From positions 1,138,715 through 1,202,714 of the forward strand of contig CP064960.1 of assembly GCA_016699105.1 (NCBI GenBank): DNA of 64,000 nt, in the 5' to 3' direction. The notes below the pieces were generated by a model. The model did not search any database and had not been told where the DNA came from. It saw only the letters and a list, made by a program, of their open reading frames with translations. Of this stretch, positions 5,894 to 32,451 are shown in pieces. The translations under genes and the position numbers were made by a program. The DNA is from a bacterium. Its GTDB lineage: Bacteria > Patescibacteriota > Saccharimonadia > UBA4664. Positions within the stretch are counted from its first letter, which is position 1. Each line of letters starts with the position of its first letter.

Positions 5894-6151
5894 TCATCCA
5901 GCGCGGCGGGCGCGAGCATTGCGGCGTTTGAGCGCCCGGCGTTCATCTTCACTGTGACCACCCCAAACGCCGGCGTCGTCGCCTTTATCCAATGCTTGAC
6001 GTAAGCAGATGTCAATCACTTCGCAGCGGCGACAGACTTCTTTGGCTTCTTCGATCTGAAGCAAGGCCGGACCGGTGTTTCCGATGGGGAAGAACAGCTC
6101 GGGATCCTCATCGAGGCAGGCGGCGCGGTTTCGCCAATCCATGGTATTCAC
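5894..6151 (-). CDS. WhiB-family (Wbl) Fe-S transcriptional regulator
   Basis: 85 aa. It has the four conserved Cys (C..., CRRC, C) and the WhiB core G[VI]WGG (GVWGG). The C-terminal tail is basic. Confidence 0.85.
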   Translation of the reverse strand: MNTMDWRNRAACLDEDPELFFPIGNTGPALLQIEEAKEVCRRCEVIDICLRQALDKGDDAGVWGGHSEDERRALKRRNARARRAG

Positions 6152-18390: not shown

Positions 18391-19707
18391 CTAGGGATTC
18401 ATGAATACAGCTTGACGAGGAACGTGTCCCCAGCCAACGAGCCGACCACTCAAGGCGGCAAATAGCGACCGGTAGGTCACAATTACCTGCAGGGGGTCAT
18501 TGATGAGCCGATGAAAAACTGCCCAGAGCGGGTTCCATGACCATTCACGCACGTTATACATGGCGACAAAAGCTGTGACCACGCGAACGGATGTGAACAG
18601 CGCATAATATCCCAGAGTAATTTCCCATCGCCCCTGCCACAAGGCTCCAAAAATTAAGAGCCAGATGAACGGAGCCAGCAACGGCATGAGCGCATTGATG
18701 AGACTGTAGCCCATAATGAAAGCTTGGCTGAAATTCTTAAACAGGTGCCGAAGCACCTCGCGGTGCTTATAAATCACCTGCAGAATACCAAAATACCAAC
18801 GAAACTGCTGCTTCACAAGCGCACGAGGAGTTTCGGGGTAGCGGGTATCAGCAACAGCATGTGGAGCATTGGCAATCTGGTAACCGGCACGCTGCAACCG
18901 CCAACCGGCATCTGCATCTTCAGCCATAGTGTCGGTGGCAAAGCCTCCGAGCTTGCGCATGGCGGCGGTGTCGCATGCTGAACATGCCCCAGACAAGACC
19001 ATGACAACGCCGGCCATAGACTGAGCCATACGGGCTACCGCCATGCCGACAGTGTAGTCTTCCTGCTGCCAGCGAGTGATGAGCTTGGCAAACCAGCCAT
19101 TACCGAGATTCTGGACTGCCACTCGACCCGAAACGGCACCTACCCTGGGATTGGCCATCGGCCGCACCAAGACCGGAATTGTTTCGGCACGAACGAGTGT
19201 GTCAGCGTCAATAAAAACAGTTTTCTCGCCGCGCACAATAGACGGGTTCAACAGGGCAAAATTGAGAGCTGCGCTTTTACCACCGTTGGGTCGGTGAAAG
19301 GCGCGGATCTTGATTGGGCCCATTTTGATTGCCGCTGCATAACTATCGAGAACTTTCCTGGTACCATCTGTCGAGCCATCATTTACAACAACGACTTCGA
19401 CTGCGAATGGATATGAATACGCCAGAATCGAATCGAGCGTATGACCAATGAGATCTTCTTCGTTGTAGGCGGCAATCAGAACTGTTACCAACTTGGGCCA
19501 CGGTGACCAACCGTCAAGGCTATGCCACCACTGGTTTTCTTCGTTGAAATTGTGACGTCGCCACAGCGTGCGGCTCGCATAGATGGATGCGGAACCAATA
19601 ATGAGCGACACAGCTAAACCATAGCCAATGGACATCATCAGACCTGTCTGCGTCCACAAGGAAAAAGCAGTCTGAAAACCGACGGCCCAACTGGCGATGC
19701 GATCCAC
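18391..19707 (-). CDS. Processive family-2 glycosyltransferase (PgaC/IcaA/cellulose-synthase-like)
   Basis: The GT-A core is VLIAAYNEE...VVVVNDGSTDGT. Membrane helices follow, and a QQFRWYFG (QxxRW) motif lies near the C-terminus. Confidence 0.8.
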   Translation of the reverse strand: MDRIASWAVGFQTAFSLWTQTGLMMSIGYGLAVSLIIGSASIYASRTLWRRHNFNEENQWWHSLDGWSPWPKLVTVLIAAYNEEDLIGHTLDSILAYSYPFAVEVVVVNDGSTDGTRKVLDSYAAAIKMGPIKIRAFHRPNGGKSAALNFALLNPSIVRGEKTVFIDADTLVRAETIPVLVRPMANPRVGAVSGRVAVQNLGNGWFAKLITRWQQEDYTVGMAVARMAQSMAGVVMVLSGACSACDTAAMRKLGGFATDTMAEDADAGWRLQRAGYQIANAPHAVADTRYPETPRALVKQQFRWYFGILQVIYKHREVLRHLFKNFSQAFIMGYSLINALMPLLAPFIWLLIFGALWQGRWEITLGYYALFTSVRVVTAFVAMYNVREWSWNPLWAVFHRLINDPLQVIVTYRSLFAALSGRLVGWGHVPRQAVFMNP

Positions 19708-20707
19708 ACCGTTGGCGTAGCAGCTGTGACTGAAACCGGGTGCAAAATCTGGTCGACTGTGACAAATGTGTAACCGGCGGCTTTCGCTCGCGCGATGATG
19801 TCACGTGTCAGTTTGACCGTATTTGCTCGATCGCCACCAGAGTCGTGCATGACAATCATAGCCGGTTGACCGTCGAGACGAAGATCACCTGGCGATGCAG
19901 TCTGACCGTATTCCGTGTAATCATGAGTATCATACGTAAAACTGATTTGCGGCGTGCCTAGCTGTTGGGCGAGGGCAATACCCGCCACACTACGGATACT
20001 TGAGAGTCAACGTCTTCACCAGTGTAGGGCAGGCGAAATGCCGTAGTCTTTCCGCCCTGATTGGCAATTACGCGCGTAGCACTGATGAGCTGTTGGCGAA
20101 CGAAATCGGGCTTCAATGTCGAAACGTCTGAAACGTCGGCGTGGCTCATCGTGTGATTTCCCACACTGTGATTCTTAATCATGCGTTGGAAAACTGACGG
20201 TTGTGCTTGGACGTTTTCACCGACGACAAAGAATGTACCCTTGACGTTATTGCGCTCTAGCTCGTCCATAATCTGATTCGACCACACCGGGTGAGGCCCA
20301 TCATCATAGGTGAGAGCAATGGTTTTTGGAGCCATCGTCAGATGACGGTCTACCGCATAGCGACAACCTTGTGTTGCATGCTTTTCTAACGTGGTAAGCT
20401 CGCGGACAGGAAACTTGGTGAAAGGATCAGTGGCAATGCCATTAGCGCCGATCTCCAAGACTCTACGAGCGATTCCATTTGGAACTCCAATTACCGGCGG
20501 AACTTCACAGGCCCAGTATTCCTGGGCAACCTGTGCTGGGTAGTCGGCGGCCGCATTATGCTCAGGTAAATATGACGGGGTGGCCATAGCTCGCCAGGCG
20601 GTGAGCAATAGTACGACTACAATTGCGACAATACCTAAAATAGCGGCGAAGGGTGTGATCCGAAATCGTTCAGTACCAAAGACCTGGGAGTCTTTCATGC
20701 GGAGCAT
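19638..20707 (-). CDS. Polysaccharide deacetylase (CE4/NodB, PgaB/IcaB-like), frameshifted near 19975-19985
   Basis: ORF 19958..20707 has an N-terminal TM plus NodB motifs (TFFVVG, GNHTMSH). ORF 19638..19988 in another frame gives the C-terminal part (IVMHDSGGDR...GYTFVTVDQI). Confidence 0.7.
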
Positions 20708-21835: not shown

Positions 21836-22282
21836 TTAGCCATACAGCTGCTCCAATTCATCAAGGCGCCGTTGGTATTTGGGATCCGATTTGAAATGAG
21901 TCTCGATGAACGTATCCAATATGGAAACAGCATCTTCATCTGAGATAAAACGCGAGGGCAGCACCAATACATTGGCATTGTCGTCGGCGCGGGCACTAGT
22001 GGCGGTTTCTTCGGACCAAGCGAGGGCTGCCCGCACACCATTGACTCGATTGGCTGCCATACTCATTCCCTGCCCTGATCCGCAAATCAGTAATCCCAGA
22101 TCATCATCTTCTCCACCCAAAATACGGCTAGCGACGGCATAAGCGAAGCGAGGGTAATCGTCATCGGCGTCGAGGTTTTGGGCGCCACAGTCTAGTACAT
22201 TATGGCCCTGGTGAACCAGATGTTCACTGAGCATGGTCTTGAGCCGGAAACCTGCATGGTCAGCACCGAGATAGATGGTCAT
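21836..22282 (-). CDS. rpiB: Ribose-5-phosphate isomerase B
   Basis: MTIYLGADHAGFRLK...LLICGSGQGMSMAANR is the RpiB/LacAB signature. The ATG at 22282 overlaps the gap stop. Confidence 0.85.
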   Translation of the reverse strand: MTIYLGADHAGFRLKTMLSEHLVHQGHNVLDCGAQNLDADDDYPRFAYAVASRILGGEDDDLGLLICGSGQGMSMAANRVNGVRAALAWSEETATSARADDNANVLVLPSRFISDEDAVSILDTFIETHFKSDPKYQRRLDELEQLYG

Positions 22283-23292
22283 TCTGAAATTGTTTTCCCG
22301 ACATTCATAACCATCTCGACTAAGCGGTTGGAGTAGCCCCACTCATTGTCATACCAAGCGACGACTTTGAGTAAGTTGCCACCAACTACGTTGGTGAGTG
22401 ACAAATCGACGATTGAGCTATGAGGGTTGCCAATGAAATCGCTTGATACCAGCGGCTCGGAAGTGACGTCTAAAATACCAAGGAGTTTTTCGGATTTGGC
22501 AGCGGTTTTGATGGCCTCATTAACTTCTTCAATAGTGACATCTTTGCTGGTAACGAACGTGAAATCTGATAGTGATACTACCGGGGTAGGGACACGGATA
22601 CTCAAGCCGTCAAACTTGTCTTTGAGGGCCGGAAAAGCTTTGGCGGCAGCGGTAGCGGCGCCAGTGGTGGTAGGCACAATATTTTCAGCGGCATTGCGGC
22701 CTTCACGGAGATCTTTAGCGGGAGCATCTTGCAAAGCTTGGCTGGCAGTGTAGGAATGGACGGTAGTCATCATGGCTTTTTCGATGCCGAAGTTTTCCTG
22801 AATAACGACAGCTACCGGCGTAATACAGTTGGTGGTACAGGAGGCATTTGAGACTACTGTGTCGGTGGCGGCTAGATCGTTTTCATTGACTCCAATCACA
22901 AAGGTGCCAGCACCCTCGCCTTTGGCGGGGCCAGATATAACGACGCGCTTGGCGCCAGCTTTGAGGTGCAAGCCAGCGTCTTCGGCTTTGGTAAAACGGC
23001 CGGTGGATTCAATGACGATATCAACGCCTAGGTCGCCCCAGGGCAAAGCGGCCGGGTCTTTTTCGGCGGTTACTTTGACGGGCTTGCCACCGATGATGAT
23101 GTGGTCGGCATCAAATGTCACAGTCTCATGGTAGGTGCCATAGTTAGAGGCGTGCTTAAGTAAATATGCCAGTGTCTCGGTACTTGTGAGGTCATTGATA
23201 GCAACTACCTCGAGCTCGGGATGGCTACGGGCTATCTTGAAAGCGCTGCGGCCGATGCGGCCGAATCCGTTGATGGCGACTTTGTACGTCAT
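22279..23292 (-). CDS. gap: Glyceraldehyde-3-phosphate dehydrogenase
   Basis: MTYKVAINGFGRIGR at the N-terminus and the catalytic SNASCTTNC. The start is taken at MTYK, the internal Met of the longer track ORF. Confidence 0.95.
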   Translation of the reverse strand: MTYKVAINGFGRIGRSAFKIARSHPELEVVAINDLTSTETLAYLLKHASNYGTYHETVTFDADHIIIGGKPVKVTAEKDPAALPWGDLGVDIVIESTGRFTKAEDAGLHLKAGAKRVVISGPAKGEGAGTFVIGVNENDLAATDTVVSNASCTTNCITPVAVVIQENFGIEKAMMTTVHSYTASQALQDAPAKDLREGRNAAENIVPTTTGAATAAAKAFPALKDKFDGLSIRVPTPVVSLSDFTFVTSKDVTIEEVNEAIKTAAKSEKLLGILDVTSEPLVSSDFIGNPHSSIVDLSLTNVVGGNLLKVVAWYDNEWGYSNRLVEMVMNVGKTISE

Positions 23293-23381
23293 AAAATAAA
23301 GGCTCCTGAAGTGGTTATGCTTTAGTATTAGTGTATAAGCTTTAGAGGGTGTAGGCAATGGCTACGATTTCTGGTATACTG

Positions 23382-23390
23382 CCGGCCACG
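23382..23390 (+). promoter_or_regulatory. Possible extended -10 element (TGGTATACT) ahead of the small-ORF operon
   Basis: TGnTATACT matches the extended -10 consensus. It lies about 40 nt upstream of the first small-ORF ribosome-binding site. Pattern match only. Confidence 0.3.
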
Positions 23391-23428
23391 CAGTACTGTT
23401 TTGTACCTACTGACAGAATGGAGTACCA

Positions 23429-23567
23429 AATGTGTCCGCGTGAGCGATTGACATGGGCGGAATATATCGCCGCAACGCCCGATCCTGATACTCAAGCTGC
23501 AAACGAGCCGCAAATCTCACAGTATCCAAAGGATGACCGCGATCTCGACCCAAAGAGTGAGCACTGA
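23429..23567 (+). CDS. Small acidic protein (45 aa), first gene of a small-ORF operon
   Basis: ATG with GGAG 7 nt upstream. Sequence MCPRERLTWAEYIAATPDPDTQAANEPQISQYPKDDRDLDPKSEH. Its stop overlaps the next start (TGACATG). Confidence 0.35.
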
Positions 23568-23568
23568 C

Positions 23569-23730
23569 ATGATTCGTCGTAGATTCAGTAGTAGAGATCC
23601 ATTGGCGGGAAAAACGAAGAATGAACGGTCAAGAATCGGTCGCAAGTCCTGGGATACTCGCCGAGCTAACGAAGATGCGCGCGATCGACGCGATGCTGAG
23701 CGCGAACGAGATGACAAGAAGGAGCGCTGA
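23569..23730 (+). CDS. Small highly charged protein (53 aa), 'MIRR...DPL' family member 1
   Basis: MIRRRFSSRDPLAGKTKNERSRIGRKSWDTRRANEDARDRRDAERERDDKKER. The stop overlaps the next start through the same GCTGACATGATTNGTCG junction. Confidence 0.4.
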   Translation: MIRRRFSSRDPLAGKTKNERSRIGRKSWDTRRANEDARDRRDAERERDDKKER

Positions 23731-23731
23731 C

Positions 23732-23770
23732 ATGATTGGTCGCGGTGGTAACAACCACAAGCGGAAATAA
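23732..23770 (+). CDS. Tiny ORF (12 aa) at the end of the small-ORF operon
   Basis: MIGRGGNNHKRK, coupled through the repeated TGACATGATT junction. It may be a coupling artefact rather than a real product. Confidence 0.2.
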   Translation: MIGRGGNNHKRK

Positions 23771-23785
23771 CACCACAGCGCCGCC

Positions 23786-23824
23786 ATGTGCTTCCGGGGA
23801 TGATCCCCGGAAGCACATTTTATT
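23786..23824 (+). terminator. Rho-independent terminator
   Basis: A perfect 14-bp stem (atgtgcttccgggg / ccccggaagcacat) followed by TTTTATT. Confidence 0.7.
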
Positions 23825-23840
23825 ATTACTGATTTGAAAA

Positions 23841-23871
23841 GGACTCCTGGGGCAAGACGCCCCAGGAGTCC
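23841..23871 (-). terminator. Hairpin terminator for the convergent minus-strand small genes
   Basis: A perfect 13-bp stem (ggactcctggggc / gccccaggagtcc) with a T-run on the minus strand. Confidence 0.55.
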
Positions 23872-23916
23872 CGGTAGTGCGATCAGATCAGGTCTTGGGT
23901 CGACGACCTTTCTTTC

Positions 23917-24075
23917 TCAGATCCCCTGAAGCCGTCGCCAGGCTCCATATCTCTCATTCGGATCTGACGACTCGTCCGCCAAGATAATGTCGTCAGCCTC
24001 GCTGTCTTTCTCGGTGCGATCCCGCTCCCATACACCATTTTCGTTCTTGAACCATTGTCCGCTCCTGCGACCCAT
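23917..24075 (-). CDS. Small protein (52 aa), hypothetical
   Basis: ATG with a strong GGGAGGTG ribosome-binding site 8 nt upstream. Sequence MGRRSGQWFKNENGVWERDRTEKDSEADDIILADESSDPNERYGAWRRLQGI. Absent from the ORF track because it is under 60 aa. Confidence 0.4.
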   Translation of the reverse strand: MGRRSGQWFKNENGVWERDRTEKDSEADDIILADESSDPNERYGAWRRLQGI

Positions 24076-24237
24076 GCTTATTCACCTCCCTCATCTTTAC
24101 GGGTGCTCCTGTACTTTCAGTTAGTACACAGTGGTAGCCCCGGCGGCAATTCCCGCTCGCGCTCGTCATTGCAAGCGGTACACCCCACGATCCTGAATAT
24201 TCGCTGCTGGTGTTTTTCGCAGTACCGCGCCATGGAG

Positions 24238-24309
24238 CTAGCGGCCCTTACGCTTGGGGCGGGTGGTCTTGCGCGGGCTTTTCTTGTCTGGATTTCGTGT
24301 ACCAAACAT
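24238..24309 (-). CDS. Tiny very basic peptide (23 aa)
   Basis: ATG with AGAGGAG 6 nt upstream. Sequence MFGTRNPDKKSPRKTTRPKRKGR. It sits immediately upstream of the 52-aa gene. Confidence 0.25.
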   Translation of the reverse strand: MFGTRNPDKKSPRKTTRPKRKGR

Positions 24310-24476
24310 GGTTTGCTCCTCTGCTATTGCGTACTCATTAGTACGCTGAGTTTGAGGCGGCCACCTCAAGCTTCTCTCTATTTACCGTTCTTACATGAAT
24401 CGCGGTGACGCTGTAGCCTTTTCCGCACCGCCGCCTGGTCGCGAATTGCTTCCTAGGTGGTGTCGTCACTACGTCG

Positions 24477-24692
24477 TTAAGCTTTCTGAGCGTCGCGACC
24501 AGGTTCGTAGTTGCGAGTGCGCATTCTAGTTACCCCCACGCTTTTAGGATCCTTACGGCGCTTATTGATTTCCCTATGAAGCGCGTCGTCGTCGAGCTTT
24601 TCGCGTTCCGAACGCGGATTCTTCTTCAGCCGATCCAATCGATCCTGTGCTCTGTCAAGCGGATCCTCGTCTTTTTCCTTGCGTCTAATCAT
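24477..24692 (-). CDS. Small highly charged protein (71 aa), 'MIRR...DPL' family member 2
   Basis: MIRRKEKDEDPLDRAQDRLDRLKK... shares MIRR-x5-DPL and its composition with the plus-strand 53-aa ORF. AAGGGAAG lies upstream. Confidence 0.4.
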   Translation of the reverse strand: MIRRKEKDEDPLDRAQDRLDRLKKNPRSEREKLDDDALHREINKRRKDPKSVGVTRMRTRNYEPGRDAQKA

Positions 24693-24824
24693 GCTGATAC
24701 TTCCCTTCTTGGGGGTGTTTATCCTCTACGGCGATTGCTCATTTTTACTTGAGCATCGCGCAATCTGGCTTCGGCTTGCTCGAGCTCAAGCGCATGATGC
24801 TCTCCTTCTGGGTTGGATTTGCGC

Positions 24825-24996
24825 TACTTATTGCGTCGGCCTTTCTTGTTCTGTGCTTCTCGATACGCGGCGTTGGCCTGATCGACATTCGACTGTGTGC
24901 GAGGCTGGTCGGCCGGGTTGTCATTGTTGATGTGCTCAACGCCAGCTTCGATCACCTTACGTCGAGCATCCCAAACGGCTTTTCGTCTACACCAAT
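24825..24996 (-). CDS. Small basic protein (about 57 aa), hypothetical
   Basis: A TTG start 5 nt after a perfect TAAGGAGGTG ribosome-binding site. The C-terminus is R/K-rich. Confidence 0.3.
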
Positions 24997-25203
24997 TCGC
25001 CAATTTAACACCTCCTTAGAATGGCTAGCCTATGGCGTCAACGATGCCAATGATGGCATCAAAGAACATAAAAACCCCGGTCACGAGCGATACCAGAAGA
25101 TGGAACAAGCCTAAGGCGATATTGGCTGACTCCACGGGCGTAGCTGTGACCGCACGGAAGAGGAACAAACCGAGTAAGACGACGCCTGTTCGACGCAGTA
25201 CAG

Positions 25204-26190
25204 TCACAGCTCATCAATTCTTTCGGTACGCTGCCGCGCAGCTATCTCCTCCAAGAGTTCTCGGATAGCGCGTAGATGATCCGTCTGTATGCCGTGATTT
25301 TGTTCAAATCTGACTCGAATATCGTCTAGCAATAACCGCAACTGGGTAGGATACTGAACGAATTTGAGGTCAATCATCGCGATTGAACTTTCTTTGCCAA
25401 GCAACGTCACTGTACCCGGCCAGAACCATGGCGGAACGCGTCGGAACAACCGCTCCAAGAATACGTTGCCATAGGGGCCACCGATGCATCTGCCAAATGA
25501 AGCATCCTCTTCGGTTGTCCATTTGGACTTAAAGGGCTTTGACTTGTACATAAACCCGTGGGCAAACACGATTCGCGCTGATAGCAGGCGGTGCAGGTAG
25601 ATCCCTGCCAGTACAGTAGATGCGACGCTCTGATACACCAGCCAGCTAATGAACCAGATCCAGTTTAGTCCTGTGACCATCACCACAGAAGTCAGGATAA
25701 GGTCCAGCAAGACTAAACCAATGGCAGCAAGCCAAAATATGAATGGCGAATATGTGGCAGCGTAGCCTTCATACTCGTTCATGTCGCATAGGCGCTTGGG
25801 TTCGCGGGTGCGGCCCAAAGTCGGAATTCCTGCTGTCACTACCTCGTGGCTACCCGCGATCGGATAGTAGGGGGAGTCGTACAGAAACCCATGCAGGAAC
25901 CGAGTAGCAGCATTCAAACCATAATGGGTCGGCTGCCGAAAGCGGCGATTTCCACTTGGTCGATTGGCCGGCCGTCGGGGGCGTTGAGGGCGCCTATTCC
26001 GCTGCCGCCACCAGCGTCGCACCCACCCTGTGATTTGACGATGGTAATCCATTTGGAAAAACGGGATGTGTGACATGAAATAGTACGCCACGGCGGTGCC
26101 GGCAAGAATGAGACACCAATTGATGAAGGTTGTCATAGGTACCCCCAATCTGCAGAATCGTTGGATTGCACTAAAATGGGATTGTAACAT
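25204..26190 (-). CDS. Membrane protein, hypothetical
   Basis: 328 aa with several TM helices and an Arg/Pro-rich loop. No family recognised. Confidence 0.5.
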   Translation of the reverse strand: MLQSHFSAIQRFCRLGVPMTTFINWCLILAGTAVAYYFMSHIPFFQMDYHRQITGWVRRWWRQRNRRPQRPRRPANRPSGNRRFRQPTHYGLNAATRFLHGFLYDSPYYPIAGSHEVVTAGIPTLGRTREPKRLCDMNEYEGYAATYSPFIFWLAAIGLVLLDLILTSVVMVTGLNWIWFISWLVYQSVASTVLAGIYLHRLLSARIVFAHGFMYKSKPFKSKWTTEEDASFGRCIGGPYGNVFLERLFRRVPPWFWPGTVTLLGKESSIAMIDLKFVQYPTQLRLLLDDIRVRFEQNHGIQTDHLRAIRELLEEIAARQRTERIDEL

Positions 26191-26267
26191 TCTACTACTC
26201 TTATTGCTTTAAGTAAAATGTAATTGCATATAATTACGTATCTGCAGCCGCGAAGTACAACCAAAAT

Positions 26268-26295
26268 GGCTCCTGGGGAGATTTCCCCAGGAGCC
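26268..26295 (-). terminator. Hairpin terminator-like element, related in sequence to the hairpin at 23841
   Basis: A perfect 12-bp stem (ggctcctgggga / tccccaggagcc) with a 4-nt loop and a T-run on the minus strand. It shares the core CTCCTGGGG. Confidence 0.45.
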
Positions 26296-26476
26296 ATTAC
26301 CTTGCATGTCGCCGTTACTTCTGGCCACGTTCACCTTTGGTGCGCTTGTTGCGATGACCTGGTCGGCCTCTTGGCTAGTTCTTGCCTTCAGCGCTACCAT
26401 CTTTGGAGGAATTGGCGCAACCGCAGGTTGGGTATGTTCGTTGTAACATTGCTTCACTCTTTTCGCGTGTTGGTCA

Positions 26477-26695
26477 TTAGTCCCTGTACTCAGGCATAAA
26501 AGCTTCATCGGGATTTCTGTCACAGTGATCGCGCTTGAATGCATTACCCGGGAAAGCGTAGTCTTCTTGGGCATTTTTAGCCGCTCCCTCGCCGCGCATA
26601 GGCTTTCGGCCGTGCATACGCTGGCGAACTTTCGCTTTTACTTTGTCGTCTTCAATCCATTGCTCTTTTGGGGGCTTGTTTTGGCCGAAGCTCAC
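26477..26695 (-). CDS. Small charged protein (72 aa), hypothetical
   Basis: GTG start with AAGGAG 7 nt upstream. Sequence MSFGQNKPPKEQWIEDDKVKAKVRQRMHGRKPMRGEG.... Confidence 0.45.
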   Translation of the reverse strand: MSFGQNKPPKEQWIEDDKVKAKVRQRMHGRKPMRGEGAAKNAQEDYAFPGNAFKRDHCDRNPDEAFMPEYRD

Positions 26696-26724
26696 GGCTT
26701 ACTCCTTATCGGAAGTAGGATTAA

Positions 26725-27354
26725 CTATTTTCTGATTTCGGCTAATGGAACGAATTCATCTCTCAGATTGACGAACCATTTGAACTGGCGGACATTTTGC
26801 CAGCCGAAGGCGATGGCTAATACGGTCGTAGGTGCCAGGATCACGCAGGCAAATGTATTCGCAAAAGACCAATGAGGCAGTACAAGGGGTAGCCAGAGTA
26901 CAAAGCAGCCGGCAGCAAAATCATTCGCTGTATGAAGTTTGATTACCCATTCGGGCTCGCACCACATCGACGGAGTCTCTTGGCGATTTTGAAGCGCTCG
27001 GTAGATCAAGGTTGTTCGCCTGAGGATGATTGAGCGCAGCAGCCAAACCGACCATTGAACTAAAGCGATGACAAAGATAGTCATCCAATTGTTGAATAAC
27101 GCCATAACGAGGGCGCTGTAGCACAACGAGTAACGGCAGATGAGATCGGCTCGGGAATCAAGCCAATCGCCATAGTTGCTTGTCGTGCCAGTGTACCGTG
27201 CCCAAGCTCCGTCAAAGAAATCGGTTAGTAAACAGATTGAAATTAGTGTTAAGGCCACCATTTGCACGATACGACATTGAGCCAACTCACCCAAAACCGC
27301 GAGCGGTGCCCAGGCGACGATGCTCATTCGAAACCGGGAAAGTTGATTCGCCAT
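26725..27354 (-). CDS. CDP-alcohol phosphatidyltransferase family protein
   Basis: The D-G-x2-A-R...G-x3-D-x3-D motif is present (DFFDGAWARYTGTTSNYGDWLDSRAD). Several TM helices. Confidence 0.7.
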   Translation of the reverse strand: MANQLSRFRMSIVAWAPLAVLGELAQCRIVQMVALTLISICLLTDFFDGAWARYTGTTSNYGDWLDSRADLICRYSLCYSALVMALFNNWMTIFVIALVQWSVWLLRSIILRRTTLIYRALQNRQETPSMWCEPEWVIKLHTANDFAAGCFVLWLPLVLPHWSFANTFACVILAPTTVLAIAFGWQNVRQFKWFVNLRDEFVPLAEIRK

Positions 27355-30017: not shown

Positions 30018-31136
30018 CTAAACTTGCGTCCTCAGCAACCAGGCTGACCGTTCGAGGGTGCGGTACAACCACGACCGTTGGATCCAAGTCTGGGAAGCGA
30101 TGGTGACACAGTGAGACAGGTCATCGGCAAAGGCGGCGTCAAGCTCGGCTGACAGATCGGCATGCTCGATCGAGATATCGAATTCATCATTGAGCAAGAG
30201 CGACCGATCATCGACGTTTGCAGAGCCAATATGAGACCATTGACCATCGATAGTGAGCGTCTTGCTATGCAATACGGTGGGGCTGTATTCAAATATTTTA
30301 ATACCCGCATCTAGCAATGGCGCATAGAGGGAGCGGCTACACCAGCGAGTGAACCGATGGTTTGTGCGCGGTCCATTGGTGATGATACGCACTAACACGC
30401 CACGGCGTGCAGCCTGTATGAGCGCCTGAGTTATTTTTTCATTGGGTACAAAATAGGCCGTTGTCAGATTGATATTGTGCCGGGCACGGGCAAAAGCGCG
30501 CAGAAACTCGGTTTCGAGGACGGCCGGCCGCTGACCGCCCCGACTAGCGATCGCAGTGATAGATACATCACGATAGGTGCCCGGGGTGGGGAGAGGTTGA
30601 TCGGAAGGAGTCTGTTCGAGAGGTAGCAGTTTTCGGCCCGTCGCGACCAGCCAATTGTCACAAAAAGCCGCTGTCAGCTCCTGACAGACTGGCCCCGTGA
30701 GCCGGCTATGAGTTTCCCTCCAGTGATGCGGACTATGAGCCCGGCCTGTCCATTCTTCAGCAATGCCAACGCCACCAGTAAAACCGATAACACCATCTAC
30801 GACCAAAATTTTCCGGTGAGTCCGGTGGTTGGCTTGCAAGAGATGTTTGACTGTCAGTGGCCGAAACCAAGCAACCTGGACACCAGCCCGCTCGAGCCGG
30901 GTGAGGGTGCGGGTATCCATCGTAGCCCCACCAATAGCGTCGACGACCAAGTGAACTGCCACGCCTGATTTGGCGCGTTCAGCCAGCGCCGACGCAAATT
31001 TGTTGGCAATGGCACTTTTCCAATAAACATAGGTGCAAAAGTCGACTCGCCGCTGAGCTGAAGTAATAGCTTGGAGCATGGCAGGAAATATTTCGTCACC
31101 GTTATGCAGCAACGTAATTGAATTGCCGGTGGTCAT
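30018..31136 (-). CDS. cls: Cardiolipin synthase / phospholipase D family protein
   Basis: Two HKD motifs: HRKILVVDG and HSKTLTIDGQWSHIGSANVD. Start taken at MTTGNS. Confidence 0.8.
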   Translation of the reverse strand: MTTGNSITLLHNGDEIFPAMLQAITSAQRRVDFCTYVYWKSAIANKFASALAERAKSGVAVHLVVDAIGGATMDTRTLTRLERAGVQVAWFRPLTVKHLLQANHRTHRKILVVDGVIGFTGGVGIAEEWTGRAHSPHHWRETHSRLTGPVCQELTAAFCDNWLVATGRKLLPLEQTPSDQPLPTPGTYRDVSITAIASRGGQRPAVLETEFLRAFARARHNINLTTAYFVPNEKITQALIQAARRGVLVRIITNGPRTNHRFTRWCSRSLYAPLLDAGIKIFEYSPTVLHSKTLTIDGQWSHIGSANVDDRSLLLNDEFDISIEHADLSAELDAAFADDLSHCVTIASQTWIQRSWLYRTLERSAWLLRTQV

Positions 31137-32451
31137 GGTAGGCAGGAGGGGTTGGGTTTTTCGCCGATATTGAGCGTGCGCATCCAAGTAAGTGTATCTT
31201 GATACGATTGCAACATAGTGTCGTAGTGCGTGGCTTTGGGATAGACTACTTGCCGGACTGGGCCAGAACTGGTGGCGCACAGTTGCGTGGTCCCGGCAGT
31301 TTGCTGAGAAGCAAGGACGACATTATCGAGCGCTCCAGTATTGATGAGCTTGGCACTGGTTGTAGGGACGCTGCCGACGGCGTTGAGATCGAGCTGGCGG
31401 CCAAATTCTTCGTACTGGCTGCCCGTCCAGGCGTTGTCAGCCAAAACCCGCAAGAAGTCTGGCGAATATACTCCTGCAGGCGTGCGGCCCCAAAACGGTA
31501 TGTTGGTATCAATGCAATGATTGGGGACATCGGTATCGAGTCCGGTGACAACCCGAGGCGTCAGCATTTCGCCCAAGGGGTAGTTGGTGCGGTAGTAATC
31601 GCGATATGAATACAATACATATGGCCCAAACCAATTGATGTTGGCACCGTGGGTGACATCGGCGAGTGTCGTTTTGACGCTCATGACTGGCCCATAACCG
31701 ACGACGCCTTTGATTTTGAGCTCAGGTGCATATTCGGAACAATTTTGTCGGCCCACAGGGCTGCGTGTCCACCTTGGGAGTAGCCACCCGTATATAAATT
31801 GGTCAAGTTGAGCCGGTCTTGGGCGACGGGTAATTCTTTGAGTGCCCGCACGGCATCGAGGAGTGCCCTACCTTCCAATTCACCGACCATATAGTGATGC
31901 GGCCGGGCGACATCGCGCATGCCTTCATAGTCTGTGGTTACAACAGCCATGCCTTGGACAGCGTAAGCAGCTAGATGCGAGTCGTAATTGGCCCAGTTGG
32001 CAATGTGTGGTTGTTCGAGACTGGCTGCACATTTATCGCCGATACCCGTGGTGCCGGGCGCAAAGGCAAAAACCGGTAAATTCGATGTGGGGCTAGCGGG
32101 TAAGTATGCCCGGCCATAGACTGTTATCCAGGCACCCGATGGCGTGCGGGAGCGATAATGAAACGTCACCTTGGTAATGGCATTGGTTATTTGCGGTGTG
32201 AGTGCACCGTAGTTTTCGCGAATGAGTTTGACTACTTCGGGGCTCTGGATGACTTTGACTTCATCGACGGCAATCAGATCACCTGCCTGAATCGTGTCGG
32301 TCAGGGGGTTGCCGGTAGTAAAGACGGCGCCAATACGATCAAAGCGGCCCAAGGCATACGCCGTACCGACACAAGCGATAACGACGAGGCTATAGACGAT
32401 AATGCGAGCGGTATGCCGGCGGCGTTTTGGTTGCCAATTTGGTGTACTCAT
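31133..32451 (-). CDS. Secreted alpha/beta-hydrolase (secretory-lipase-like), with a 1-bp frameshift near 31735
   Basis: N-terminal TM, nucleophile elbow GYSQGG. The continuation appears in another frame (EYAPELKIKGVVGYGPV...). The two track ORFs (31681..32451 and 31133..31756) overlap. Confidence 0.55.

Follow-up and report, generated by a model that had tools for sequence, protein, structure and literature searches.

The genome of a member of the Candidatus Saccharibacteria carries, between the genes for a pyrophosphatase and GAPDH, a cluster of very short open reading frames (ORFs). We examined it within a stretch of 64,000 nucleotides (GenBank assembly GCA_016699105.1, contig CP064960.1, positions 1,138,715 to 1,202,714 of the forward strand), which is referred to below as the window and supplies the numbering used throughout. 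From comparison with other contigs of the same species and with a sister species, we consider it about 70% probable that the cluster is a lineage-restricted, accessory, and hypervariable island composed of orphan small-protein genes and gene remnants. As a kind of locus, such an island is real but fairly ordinary. The cluster had been noticed in an earlier reading of the letters alone (the sequence-only reading), the coordinates and sequences of which were accurate, with the features present in the sequence. Two predicted transcription units converge there and meet at back-to-back terminators. The plus-strand unit comprises a promoter, p45, p53, p12, and a terminator. The minus-strand unit begins with a 310-amino-acid (aa) membrane protein and continues through a 60-aa membrane peptide (p60tm), p59, p16, p55, p15, p20, p37, and p62, most of which have their own ribosome-binding site.

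Results

Frame-specific similarity to a sister species

The sister species was found by means of the neighboring 310-aa gene, which has one diverged relative (49-52% identity), present on seven contigs with the same synteny. Synonymous sites are near saturation between the two species (the proportion of synonymous differences, pS, is 0.68 in GAPDH), and neutral sequence should, therefore, no longer align; a blastn comparison of the two clusters gave little match. The minus-strand unit of the sister species nevertheless holds a 62-aa membrane peptide and ORFs of 30, 63, 45, and 55-58 aa, matching those of the window in order and orientation, and its opposite strand carries an ORF of about 57 aa followed by one of 59 aa. 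Similarity between the corresponding products was tested against composition-preserving shuffles, and in a frame test the predicted pair was compared with the 17 other frame combinations.

The highest similarities were those of p53 and p72. Over 45 aa, p53 (23569-23730, plus strand) is 51% identical to the sister protein s57 (z=14.2; ratio of non-synonymous to synonymous differences, pN/pS, 0.39), the predicted frame pair scoring 121 as against 71 for the next best, and the conserved core reads DPLA-K..ER..I...W-TRR..ARD-RDA. The best-conserved small protein of the locus, p72 (26477-26695, minus strand), is 64% identical to s66 (z=32; dN/dS 0.19) and is found in three species at 58-66% identity. 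Both thus keep their frame, exceed chance similarity, and have accumulated fewer non-synonymous than synonymous changes. Frame conservation and similarity above chance were also found for p62, p55, and p60tm, for which the support is modest and comes from one other species. The product of p62 (23887-24075, minus strand) is 41% identical to s58 over 49 aa, a score reached in 3 of 500 shuffles (z 3.8; frame pair 49 versus 32), and its conserved residues include WF.N..G, W, RT, and Y.A.RRLQ.D. Similarly, p55 (24525-24692, minus strand; MIRRKEKDEDPL...KKRGGN, 55 aa) matches the 63-aa s63 with 40% identity over 48 aa, which 8 of 500 shuffles equaled (z 2.4; 54 versus 32). The 60-aa membrane peptide resembles the 62-aa membrane peptide of the sister species (z=5.5; 52 versus 29), and the N-terminus of p15 (24477-24524, minus strand; MRTRNYEPGRDAQKA, 15 aa) resembles s45 (z=6.9). 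All off-diagonal ORF pairs between the species were at chance, tblastx agreed with the predicted frames, and the predicted pair was the best of the 18 combinations for each conserved pair.

These results indicate that long-term constraint acts on p53, p55, p62, p72, and the membrane peptide as protein-coding genes, though they evolve fast; the small genes change about as fast as the neighboring 310-aa orphan (pN 0.3-0.45). Conservation of the reading frames in related genomes, on which the sequence-only reading had made its proposal depend, was thus seen as frame-specific similarity for these five. The accompanying idea of a family of small charged proteins fitting no known family held in part: there are several such ORFs, and p53, p62, p55, p72, and the membrane peptide recur in the same order in the sister species, but they do not constitute one family.

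The setting of the cluster is consistent with a lineage-restricted, accessory origin. The adjoining GAPDH gene (22279-23292, minus strand) is 63-71% identical to its best matches, which come from Candidatus Saccharimonadales metagenome-assembled genomes, and the gene order pyrophosphatase-[gap]-GAPDH-RpiB-Rpe is kept in those genomes. The gap measures 4.2 kb in the window, where the small-ORF cluster shares it with p72, the 310-aa gene, a gene for a CDP-alcohol phosphatidyltransferase, and a hairpin terminator; in other Saccharibacteria it is 0.2-3 kb long and has different genes (RelA/SpoT, NUDIX, or methyltransferase). None of the small ORFs of the window was found in the GAPDH loci of other Saccharibacteria. 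The small-ORF region is the longest stretch of the window (1845 nt) without an ORF of at least 150 aa. We also observed that a RelA/SpoT-like gene of 510-543 aa fills the gap in many Saccharibacteria genomes (loci L011-L022 and L035). In the window, tblastn detected no degraded RelA/SpoT or NUDIX remnant in the gap, and no RelA/SpoT homolog was found anywhere in the 64 kb.

Gene remnants, a duplicated junction, and exchanged alleles

The p53 ortholog of the sister species is followed by a gene for a 59-aa HTH_58 protein (29 bits against a Pfam cut-off of 23.8). Its last 12 residues (MRGRGGNNHEKK) match p12 (MIGRGGNNHKRK; 23732-23770, plus strand), a 12-codon ORF with a 6-mer Shine-Dalgarno (SD) sequence, and the body of the gene is absent from the window. 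Because p12 matches the C-terminus of the HTH_58 protein, it is the remnant of an HTH_58 regulator gene. Membership of HTH_58 (PF19575) was ruled out for the window itself, in which no ORF scores and 12 C-terminal codons are all that is left. Like the small HTH_58 proteins, which the 59-aa protein of the sister species exemplifies by trailing the p53 ortholog in a small operon, the locus retains those last residues, but the window lacks the helix-turn-helix body and p53 has no helix-turn-helix match.

The two near-identical 20-nt junctions described previously are present, at 23560-23579 (AGCACTGACATGATTCGTCG) and 23723-23742 (AGCGCTGACATGATTGGTCG), both on the plus strand. The adjacency is of the coupling type that had been described, but the stop and start codons do not overlap: one base intervenes (TGA-C-ATG), the first copy reading on as ATG ATT CGT CG and the second as ATG ATT GGT CG. 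The 20-nt sequence has exactly two matches in 64 kb, where 0.03 are expected, and two were reached in none of 100 shuffles. The repeat extends to 46 nt (23534-23579 and 23697-23742) with 74% identity and a spacing of 163 nt, and its local DNA score is 22, as compared with 8.7±1.4 in shuffles. The last 34 nt of p45, together with the junction, duplicate the 3′ end of p53. One interpretation, which we favor, is that the repeat is the scar of a local duplication that took in the p53 end and the following start codon. The junction would then be the p53 end plus the start of the p12 remnant, and the second copy would now provide the start codon and the 'MIR' of p53. That p45 as a whole is a diverged copy of p53 was ruled out, since the match is limited to the last 46 nt. 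Translationally coupled operons show similar arrangements, and here both plus-strand junctions read TGA-C-ATG, p55 passes into p15 through TAG-A-ATG, and the 310-aa gene into p60tm through GTGA; however, the repeat is better explained as a duplication scar, and the second junction leads only into a 12-codon remnant.

A second disrupted gene lies downstream of p55. The apparent intergenic stretch at 24320-24476 (minus strand) continues the frame of p15 with 50% aa identity over 30 aa to the rest of the 45-aa sister ORF, and the ancestral frame is interrupted by two in-frame stops, counting that of p15 itself. Because the p15 frame runs on for another 30 codons through these stops at this level of identity, p15 and 24320-24476 together represent a disrupted gene.

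The p16-p55-p15 segment exists in another form in strains L133 and L134, in which 214 bp (L133 11353-11566) stand in place of window positions 24324-24784. This shorter allele encodes a p55-type protein that is much closer to s63 of the sister species, contains an in-frame TAA, and starts where p16 starts. The 16-aa ORF p16 (MRLSSSKPKPDCAMLK; 24745-24795, minus strand; SD AAGGAG) compares with MRWRPGKGKPTD.. in L133 and MGIFRRKAKKPSED.. in the sister species. Given the position of the start in L133, p16 is the abandoned N-terminus of this gene, p55 having acquired a new start.

Exchange of sequence is seen elsewhere in the island. In strain L001, about 830 bp of unalignable sequence (448-1278) with a 182-aa ORF stands in place of part of the 310-aa gene (window 25217-25971), which is apparently another allele swap. 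Separately, a patch of high divergence at 24068-24179 (about 25 substitutions and several indels in 110 nt) distinguishes the L001/L006/L007 clade from all other strains; it takes in the p62 start with its SD, as well as the C-terminal half of p37, and the surrounding DNA is 97-99% identical. Taken as a whole, the comparisons suggest that the locus turns over rapidly, with genes truncated, duplicated, and re-started between strains and between the sister species.

Single-base deletions particular to the window

A search with the 71-aa ORF of the window (24477-24692, minus strand) retrieved a single cluster of 55-aa proteins, on ten contigs that are 95.7-99.6% identical to the window. Alignment to these and other contigs of the species showed that the window is one base short in five homopolymer runs of 4-6 bases, near 23922, 24137, 24260, 24541, and 24710. 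The extra base is present at all five sites in every other contig of the species that covers them (8-12 of 8-12, depending on the site), with no variation in tract length among those contigs. The deletion near 24710 sits upstream of p55, and the other four distort minus-strand ORFs. That near 24541, in a T-run, fuses p55 and p15 into the 71-aa ORF, where the ten other contigs have 55 aa (..KDPKKRGGN), TAG-A, and a 15-aa ORF. That near 23922, in a C-run, causes p62 to read as 52 aa (23917-24075) in the window and as 62 aa (..RRLQGDLRKKGRRSKT) in 8 other contigs. The deletion near 24137 alters the C-terminus of p37 (38 aa in the window, 37 aa in the consensus), and that near 24260 turns the 20-aa consensus ORF p20 into the 23-aa ORF of the window.

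We think it very likely that these homopolymer deletions are assembly errors, because they are contradicted by 8-12 contigs and because two conserved genes of the window are also frameshifted. A 768-aa polysaccharide deacetylase/glycosyltransferase-2 gene (18391-20707) is spread over three frames in the window, with breaks near 19710 and 20004, and both strain L001 and the sister species have it intact. Likewise, a 1-nt deletion near 31739 breaks a 439-aa lipase-like gene (31133-32451), which in other strains matches Pfam LIP/Peptidase_S9, into two overlapping ORFs; 4 of 4 other contigs covering this site have the extra base. With the closest haplotype, L010, the window shows indels only (0 mismatches and 3 gaps in 751 bp).

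Organization of the two predicted transcription units

Ahead of the plus-strand ORFs, positions 23352-23380 resemble a promoter (TAGGCA-17-TATACT, the -10 being preceded by TG), and this -10 element is conserved in the sister species (TTGAGC-18-TATACT). Transcription from this site would begin after the ATG at 23358, and this favors a 45-aa over a 69-aa reading of the first ORF. The plus-strand ORFs of 45, 53, and 12 aa are present as first reported, p45 at 23430-23567 (acidic, isoelectric point [pI] 4.4, weak SD GGAG) and p53 as a basic protein (pI 11.3) that is 60% charged. The perfect terminator that had been noted at the end of this unit (23786-23818, plus strand) was confirmed with a slightly longer stem, of 15 rather than 14 bp, closed by a 3-nt loop and followed by a T-rich tail.

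On the minus strand, the 310-aa orphan membrane protein (25204-26136; the longest ORF extends to 26190) is the first gene of its unit, and its AlphaFold model was unusable (predicted local distance difference test score, pLDDT, 40). The hydrophobic peptide p60tm (25025-25207) has a GTG start that overlaps the stop of the 310-aa gene. Next come p59 (24824-25003; 59 aa, TTG start, 8-mer SD AAGGAGGT), p16, p55, p15, p20 (24238-24309; MFGTRNPDKK..., SD AGGAG), p37 (24117-24233), and p62, which has the 8-mer SD GGAGGTGA and remains 62 aa long in four haplotypes. The C-terminal frame of p20 reads ..RPKRKGR in the window, ..WPKRK in strain L133, and ..TTPPQA in ten other contigs. A hairpin at 23842-23872 (GGACTCCTGGGGC..GCCCCAGGAGTCC, then TTTT) is the likely terminator of the unit. 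Upstream of the unit, the CDP-alcohol phosphatidyltransferase/p72 unit ends in a 15-bp hairpin terminator at 26265-26298 (minus strand), which is conserved in the sister species and in a third one. The two hairpins have a common 9-bp core (CTCCTGGGG..CCCCAGGAG); the only two hairpins of the window with this core (23844-23868 and 26270-26293) flank the unit from the 310-aa gene to p62. The gene for p72 has a GTG start and the SD AAGGAG, and its product is predicted, with low confidence (pLDDT 62), to fold into three helices, a model too weak to be used in a fold search.

All of the minus-strand ORFs first listed (71 aa, 23 aa, 52 aa, 59 aa with TTG, and 72 aa with GTG) were recovered, as were the quoted SD sequences, with 8-mer matches at p59 and p62. 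The ORFs p37, p16, and the 60-aa membrane peptide were not on that list. The statement that none of the ORFs appears in a track with a 60-aa threshold was mistaken, because those of 71 and 72 aa lie above this threshold and appear in an ordinary ORF scan. The 8-mers precede p59 and p62, and 6-mers precede p16, p12, and p72, as compared with a background of 0.08% and 0.7%, respectively, of the start triplets in the window; the strong SD sequences are kept in both species. The SD is weak or absent at p53, p55, and p15, ORFs that closely trail a preceding stop codon.

Two further ORFs were seen in passing. Between p72 and the 310-aa gene lies a very hydrophobic 46-aa ORF (MSPLLLATFTFGALVAMTWSASWLVLAFSATIFGGIGATAGWVCSL; 26306-26446, plus strand) with no clear SD and no family match, in place of which the sister species has an unrelated arginine-rich ORF. 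Elsewhere in the window, an 82-aa ORF (5894-6142, minus strand) with an 8-mer SD has a Cys pattern that, judged by eye, resembles that of a WhiB-type regulator (MDWRNRAACLDEDPELFFP..CRRCEV..C).

The MIRR/DPL motif and a Cys/His peptide

The sequence-only reading had paired p53 with the 71-aa ORF, now p55, as 'MIRR-x5-DPL' paralogs. Shuffling, cross-species comparison, and profile comparison did not support this. MIRR and DPL do occur at the same positions in both, but the shared residues are in different codons, and the similarity score of the pair is reached by 9 of 1000 composition-preserving shuffles. The crossed comparisons with the sister species gave z=0.1 for p53 versus s63 and z=0.9 for p55 versus s57, and profile-profile comparison (hhalign) assigned the pair a probability of 0.2%. 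In addition, the p55 ortholog begins MGIFRRKAKKPSEDTP, without MIRR and DPL, and the p53 ortholog lacks MIRR. We have, therefore, treated the shared motif as a coincidence in arginine- and aspartate-rich peptides.

The peptide p37 (MARYCEKHQQRIFRIVGCTACN...) has the pattern CxxH-x9-CxxC. In either the N- or the C-terminal half, roughly a quarter to 40% of the bases distinguish its three haplotypes, one of which has an in-frame 6-nt deletion; all three keep the ORF and the residues C5, K7, H8, R14, C18, and C21, with synonymous changes at K7, H8, and R14 (AGG to CGC at R14). It is absent from the sister species and matched no family model of Pfam, NCBIfam, or PHROGs. The simplest reading is that p37 is probably a small zinc-binding peptide. 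Conservation of the pattern in three haplotypes recalls the CxxC/CxxH pairs of small zinc-ribbon and zinc-knuckle peptides, but the lack of a family-model match and of a counterpart in the sister species sets p37 apart from them, and metal binding is, at this stage, putative.

Searches for known families

Searches of Pfam, NCBIfam, PHROGs, PADLOC, and PDB sequences gave no usable match for the small ORFs or for the 310-aa protein. PADLOC returned nothing for the small ORFs and noise at E=0.04-0.07 for the 310-aa protein, and PHROGs nothing beyond one match at E=0.03. In large protein databases, the 71-aa ORF and p55 had relatives in their own species only; phmmer of p53 against 1.84 billion representative proteins returned p53 itself. 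One profile scan and one degenerate-pattern search (VPPWFWPG) of JGI metagenome contigs yielded no relative of the 310-aa gene. The literature on HTH_58 and on small proteins of Saccharibacteria offered nothing relevant.

Several origins could be set aside on this basis. A phage or mobile-element origin found no support in PHROGs, in tblastn against 50,697 phage records (no match), or in IMG/VR (no relatives), and the window contains no tRNA, although no scan for integrases was made. A diversity-generating retroelement was rejected because the region has no long template/variable repeat pair; no scan for reverse transcriptase was made. The suggestion that the small proteins are toxin/antitoxin-like or ribosome-associated gained nothing from Pfam or NCBIfam, nor, for toxin-antitoxin and defense systems, from PADLOC, and ribosomal proteins likewise had no match in Pfam or NCBIfam. 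The cluster does recall type I/II toxin-antitoxin systems in its small adjacent genes, its acidic/basic pair (p45, pI 4.4, and p53, pI 11.3), and the small hydrophobic peptides nearby; however, the sister species lacks the acidic partner, and neither an antisense RNA nor a recognizable toxin fold was found.

Discussion

In the explanation that we prefer, p53, p55, p62, p72, and the membrane peptide would be translated and held by long-term purifying selection. Around them, the gene for an HTH_58 regulator would have been cut down to p12, a 45-aa gene disrupted to leave p15 and a spacer, and the start of the p55 gene relocated, with the old start left behind as p16. Local duplication of the p53 end and the following start codon would account for the junction repeat, and the ORF lengths of 52, 71, and 23 aa in the window would be a probable artefact of the five unique homopolymer deletions.

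A number of observations weigh against this explanation. The comparative base is thin, since the cluster is carried by two species only and p72 by three, and the similarities of p55 and p62 are modest (z 2.4 and 3.8). No ORF of the sister species is similar to p45, p59, or p20. There is no counterpart of p45 or p20, and p59 has no detectable similarity to the 30-aa ORF in the same position. These ORFs are kept within the species, and that of p59 is retained in strain L133 with 8 aa changes; they may be either species-specific genes or non-genes, and p45 in particular is a candidate ORF whose coding status is uncertain. Within the species, the ratio of non-synonymous to synonymous diversity (piN/piS) is about 1.1 for p62 and p59, as expected of neutral sequence, and 0.7 for the membrane peptide, the changes being few in each case. 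Under a coding-potential model (3-periodic Markov, trained on 55 long ORFs of the window), the scores of the small ORFs are intermediate, at -1 to -9.5 per 165 nt as against +8.0±6.8 for genes and -18±10.6 for decoys. The 310-aa orphan also falls between the two, which suggests that the whole island is compositionally atypical. Finally, 4 of 7 homopolymer runs of at least 5 nt are contracted inside 23900-24720, as against 0 of 25 outside it in the same 8.6 kb, and this clustering is not fully accounted for by random sequencing error.

The alternative that survives best, although we regard it as rather unlikely, is that the region is mostly decaying, functionless DNA, the purine-rich wreck of older genes with chance short frames, in which only p53 and p72 matter. 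It is consistent with the demonstrable remnants p12, p15, and p16, with the in-frame stop of the p55-type gene in L133, with the piN/piS values near 1 and the intermediate coding potential, with the lack of conservation of p45, p59, and p20, and with the wholesale swapping of alleles between strains. It does not readily explain why p62, p55, and the membrane peptide keep frame-specific aa similarity across saturated synonymous divergence, why strong SD sequences occur in both species, why the Cys/His pattern of p37 survives heavy divergence, or why p62 is still 62 aa in four haplotypes.

It is improbable that the homopolymer differences are real, that is, that slippage in short G/C/T runs produces phase variation by giving p62, p37, and p20 alternative C-terminal tails and by joining p55 to p15. 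The five indels do all affect runs of 4-6 identical bases and are clustered within 0.8 kb, and four lie close to the 3′ end of an ORF; the -1 shift joins p55 and p15 exactly in frame; and the frame of the p20 tail in the window (PKRKGR) agrees with that of the divergent strain L133 (PKRK). However, runs of 4-6 bases are short for contingency loci, and none of the 8-12 other contigs varies in tract length, despite different samples and diverged haplotypes. The difference from L010 in indels alone and the frameshifts in two conserved genes also count against it.

Still less probable is that the region is non-coding, with one or more structured RNAs as its product and the ORFs incidental, a possibility that had been raised together with an Rfam scan. 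Two hairpins in the 170-nt stretch 24310-24480 and the lack of any ORF longer than 72 aa in the region might be expected of such a locus. Yet Rfam gave no match, either at the gathering score in the whole window or at E≤1 in 23200-27000, the folding z-scores are ordinary (-1.8, terminator included, and -1.3), and conservation between the species is at the aa level and frame-specific, with DNA similarity mostly undetectable. The least probable alternative is that a long antisense plus-strand ORF (121 aa, 24749-25114; 201 aa when corrected) is the real gene and p59, p55, and p60tm its shadows: gene callers annotated antisense ORFs of 100-110 aa in several contigs, the frame is open for 201 aa in L002, and it scores about as p59 and p55 do for coding potential, but it has no SD or promoter, is broken in the window by the same indels, and shows no similarity to the sister species in the antisense frame, the sense frames scoring highest, and stop-free antisense frames are expected opposite purine-rich sense strands.

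What the small proteins do can be approached only tentatively. They are 30-62% charged and mostly basic (pI 11.3 for p53, 10.1 for p55, 10.3 for p59, and 9.3 for p62). Our best guess, offered as a possibility to which we give rather low odds, is that these very basic, 45-60% charged, probably helical or disordered proteins might bind nucleic acid. By this guess p53, which would be co-transcribed with a helix-turn-helix protein in the sister species, might serve as a lineage-specific regulatory or nucleoid-associated factor. The proposal draws solely on composition and on the helix-turn-helix neighbor in the sister species, and this too counts against the fuller form of our explanation.

A more far-reaching hypothesis, which we regard as speculative and unlikely on present evidence, is that the pyrophosphatase-GAPDH gap of this Saccharibacteria lineage is a hot spot in which small-protein genes arise, acquire new starts, lose parts, and are exchanged by recombination, all within species-level time, and that their products are under diversifying selection. 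The new start of p55, with the old one left as a 16-codon upstream ORF, and the reduction of the helix-turn-helix gene to 12 codons would fit such a hot spot, as would the partial derivation of p45 from a duplicated gene end and the divergent allele patches in p37 and p62. If it were true, the basic, Cys/His, and membrane peptides might diversify because they act at the interface with the host bacterium or with phages.

Lineage-specific small proteins of fewer than about 70 aa are catalogued in microbiome-wide surveys of small bacterial genes. The proteins described here resemble them in being short, in having their own ribosome-binding sites, in lying in operons, in having close relatives only, and in lacking a domain; they differ in that many are packed into a 2-kb hypervariable stretch and have visibly been truncated, duplicated, and re-started. 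A word of caution applies here, since three of the ORFs that drew attention to this locus owe their length in the window to probable assembly indels, and calls of small ORFs made on this sequence need to be compared with independent assemblies. Saccharibacteria have tiny genomes, and much of their lineage-specific content is unannotated. To that content the locus would add several small-protein families that are missed by 60-aa thresholds and domain libraries and are backed by conservation, and it gives an unusually clear view of the turnover of small genes between strains.

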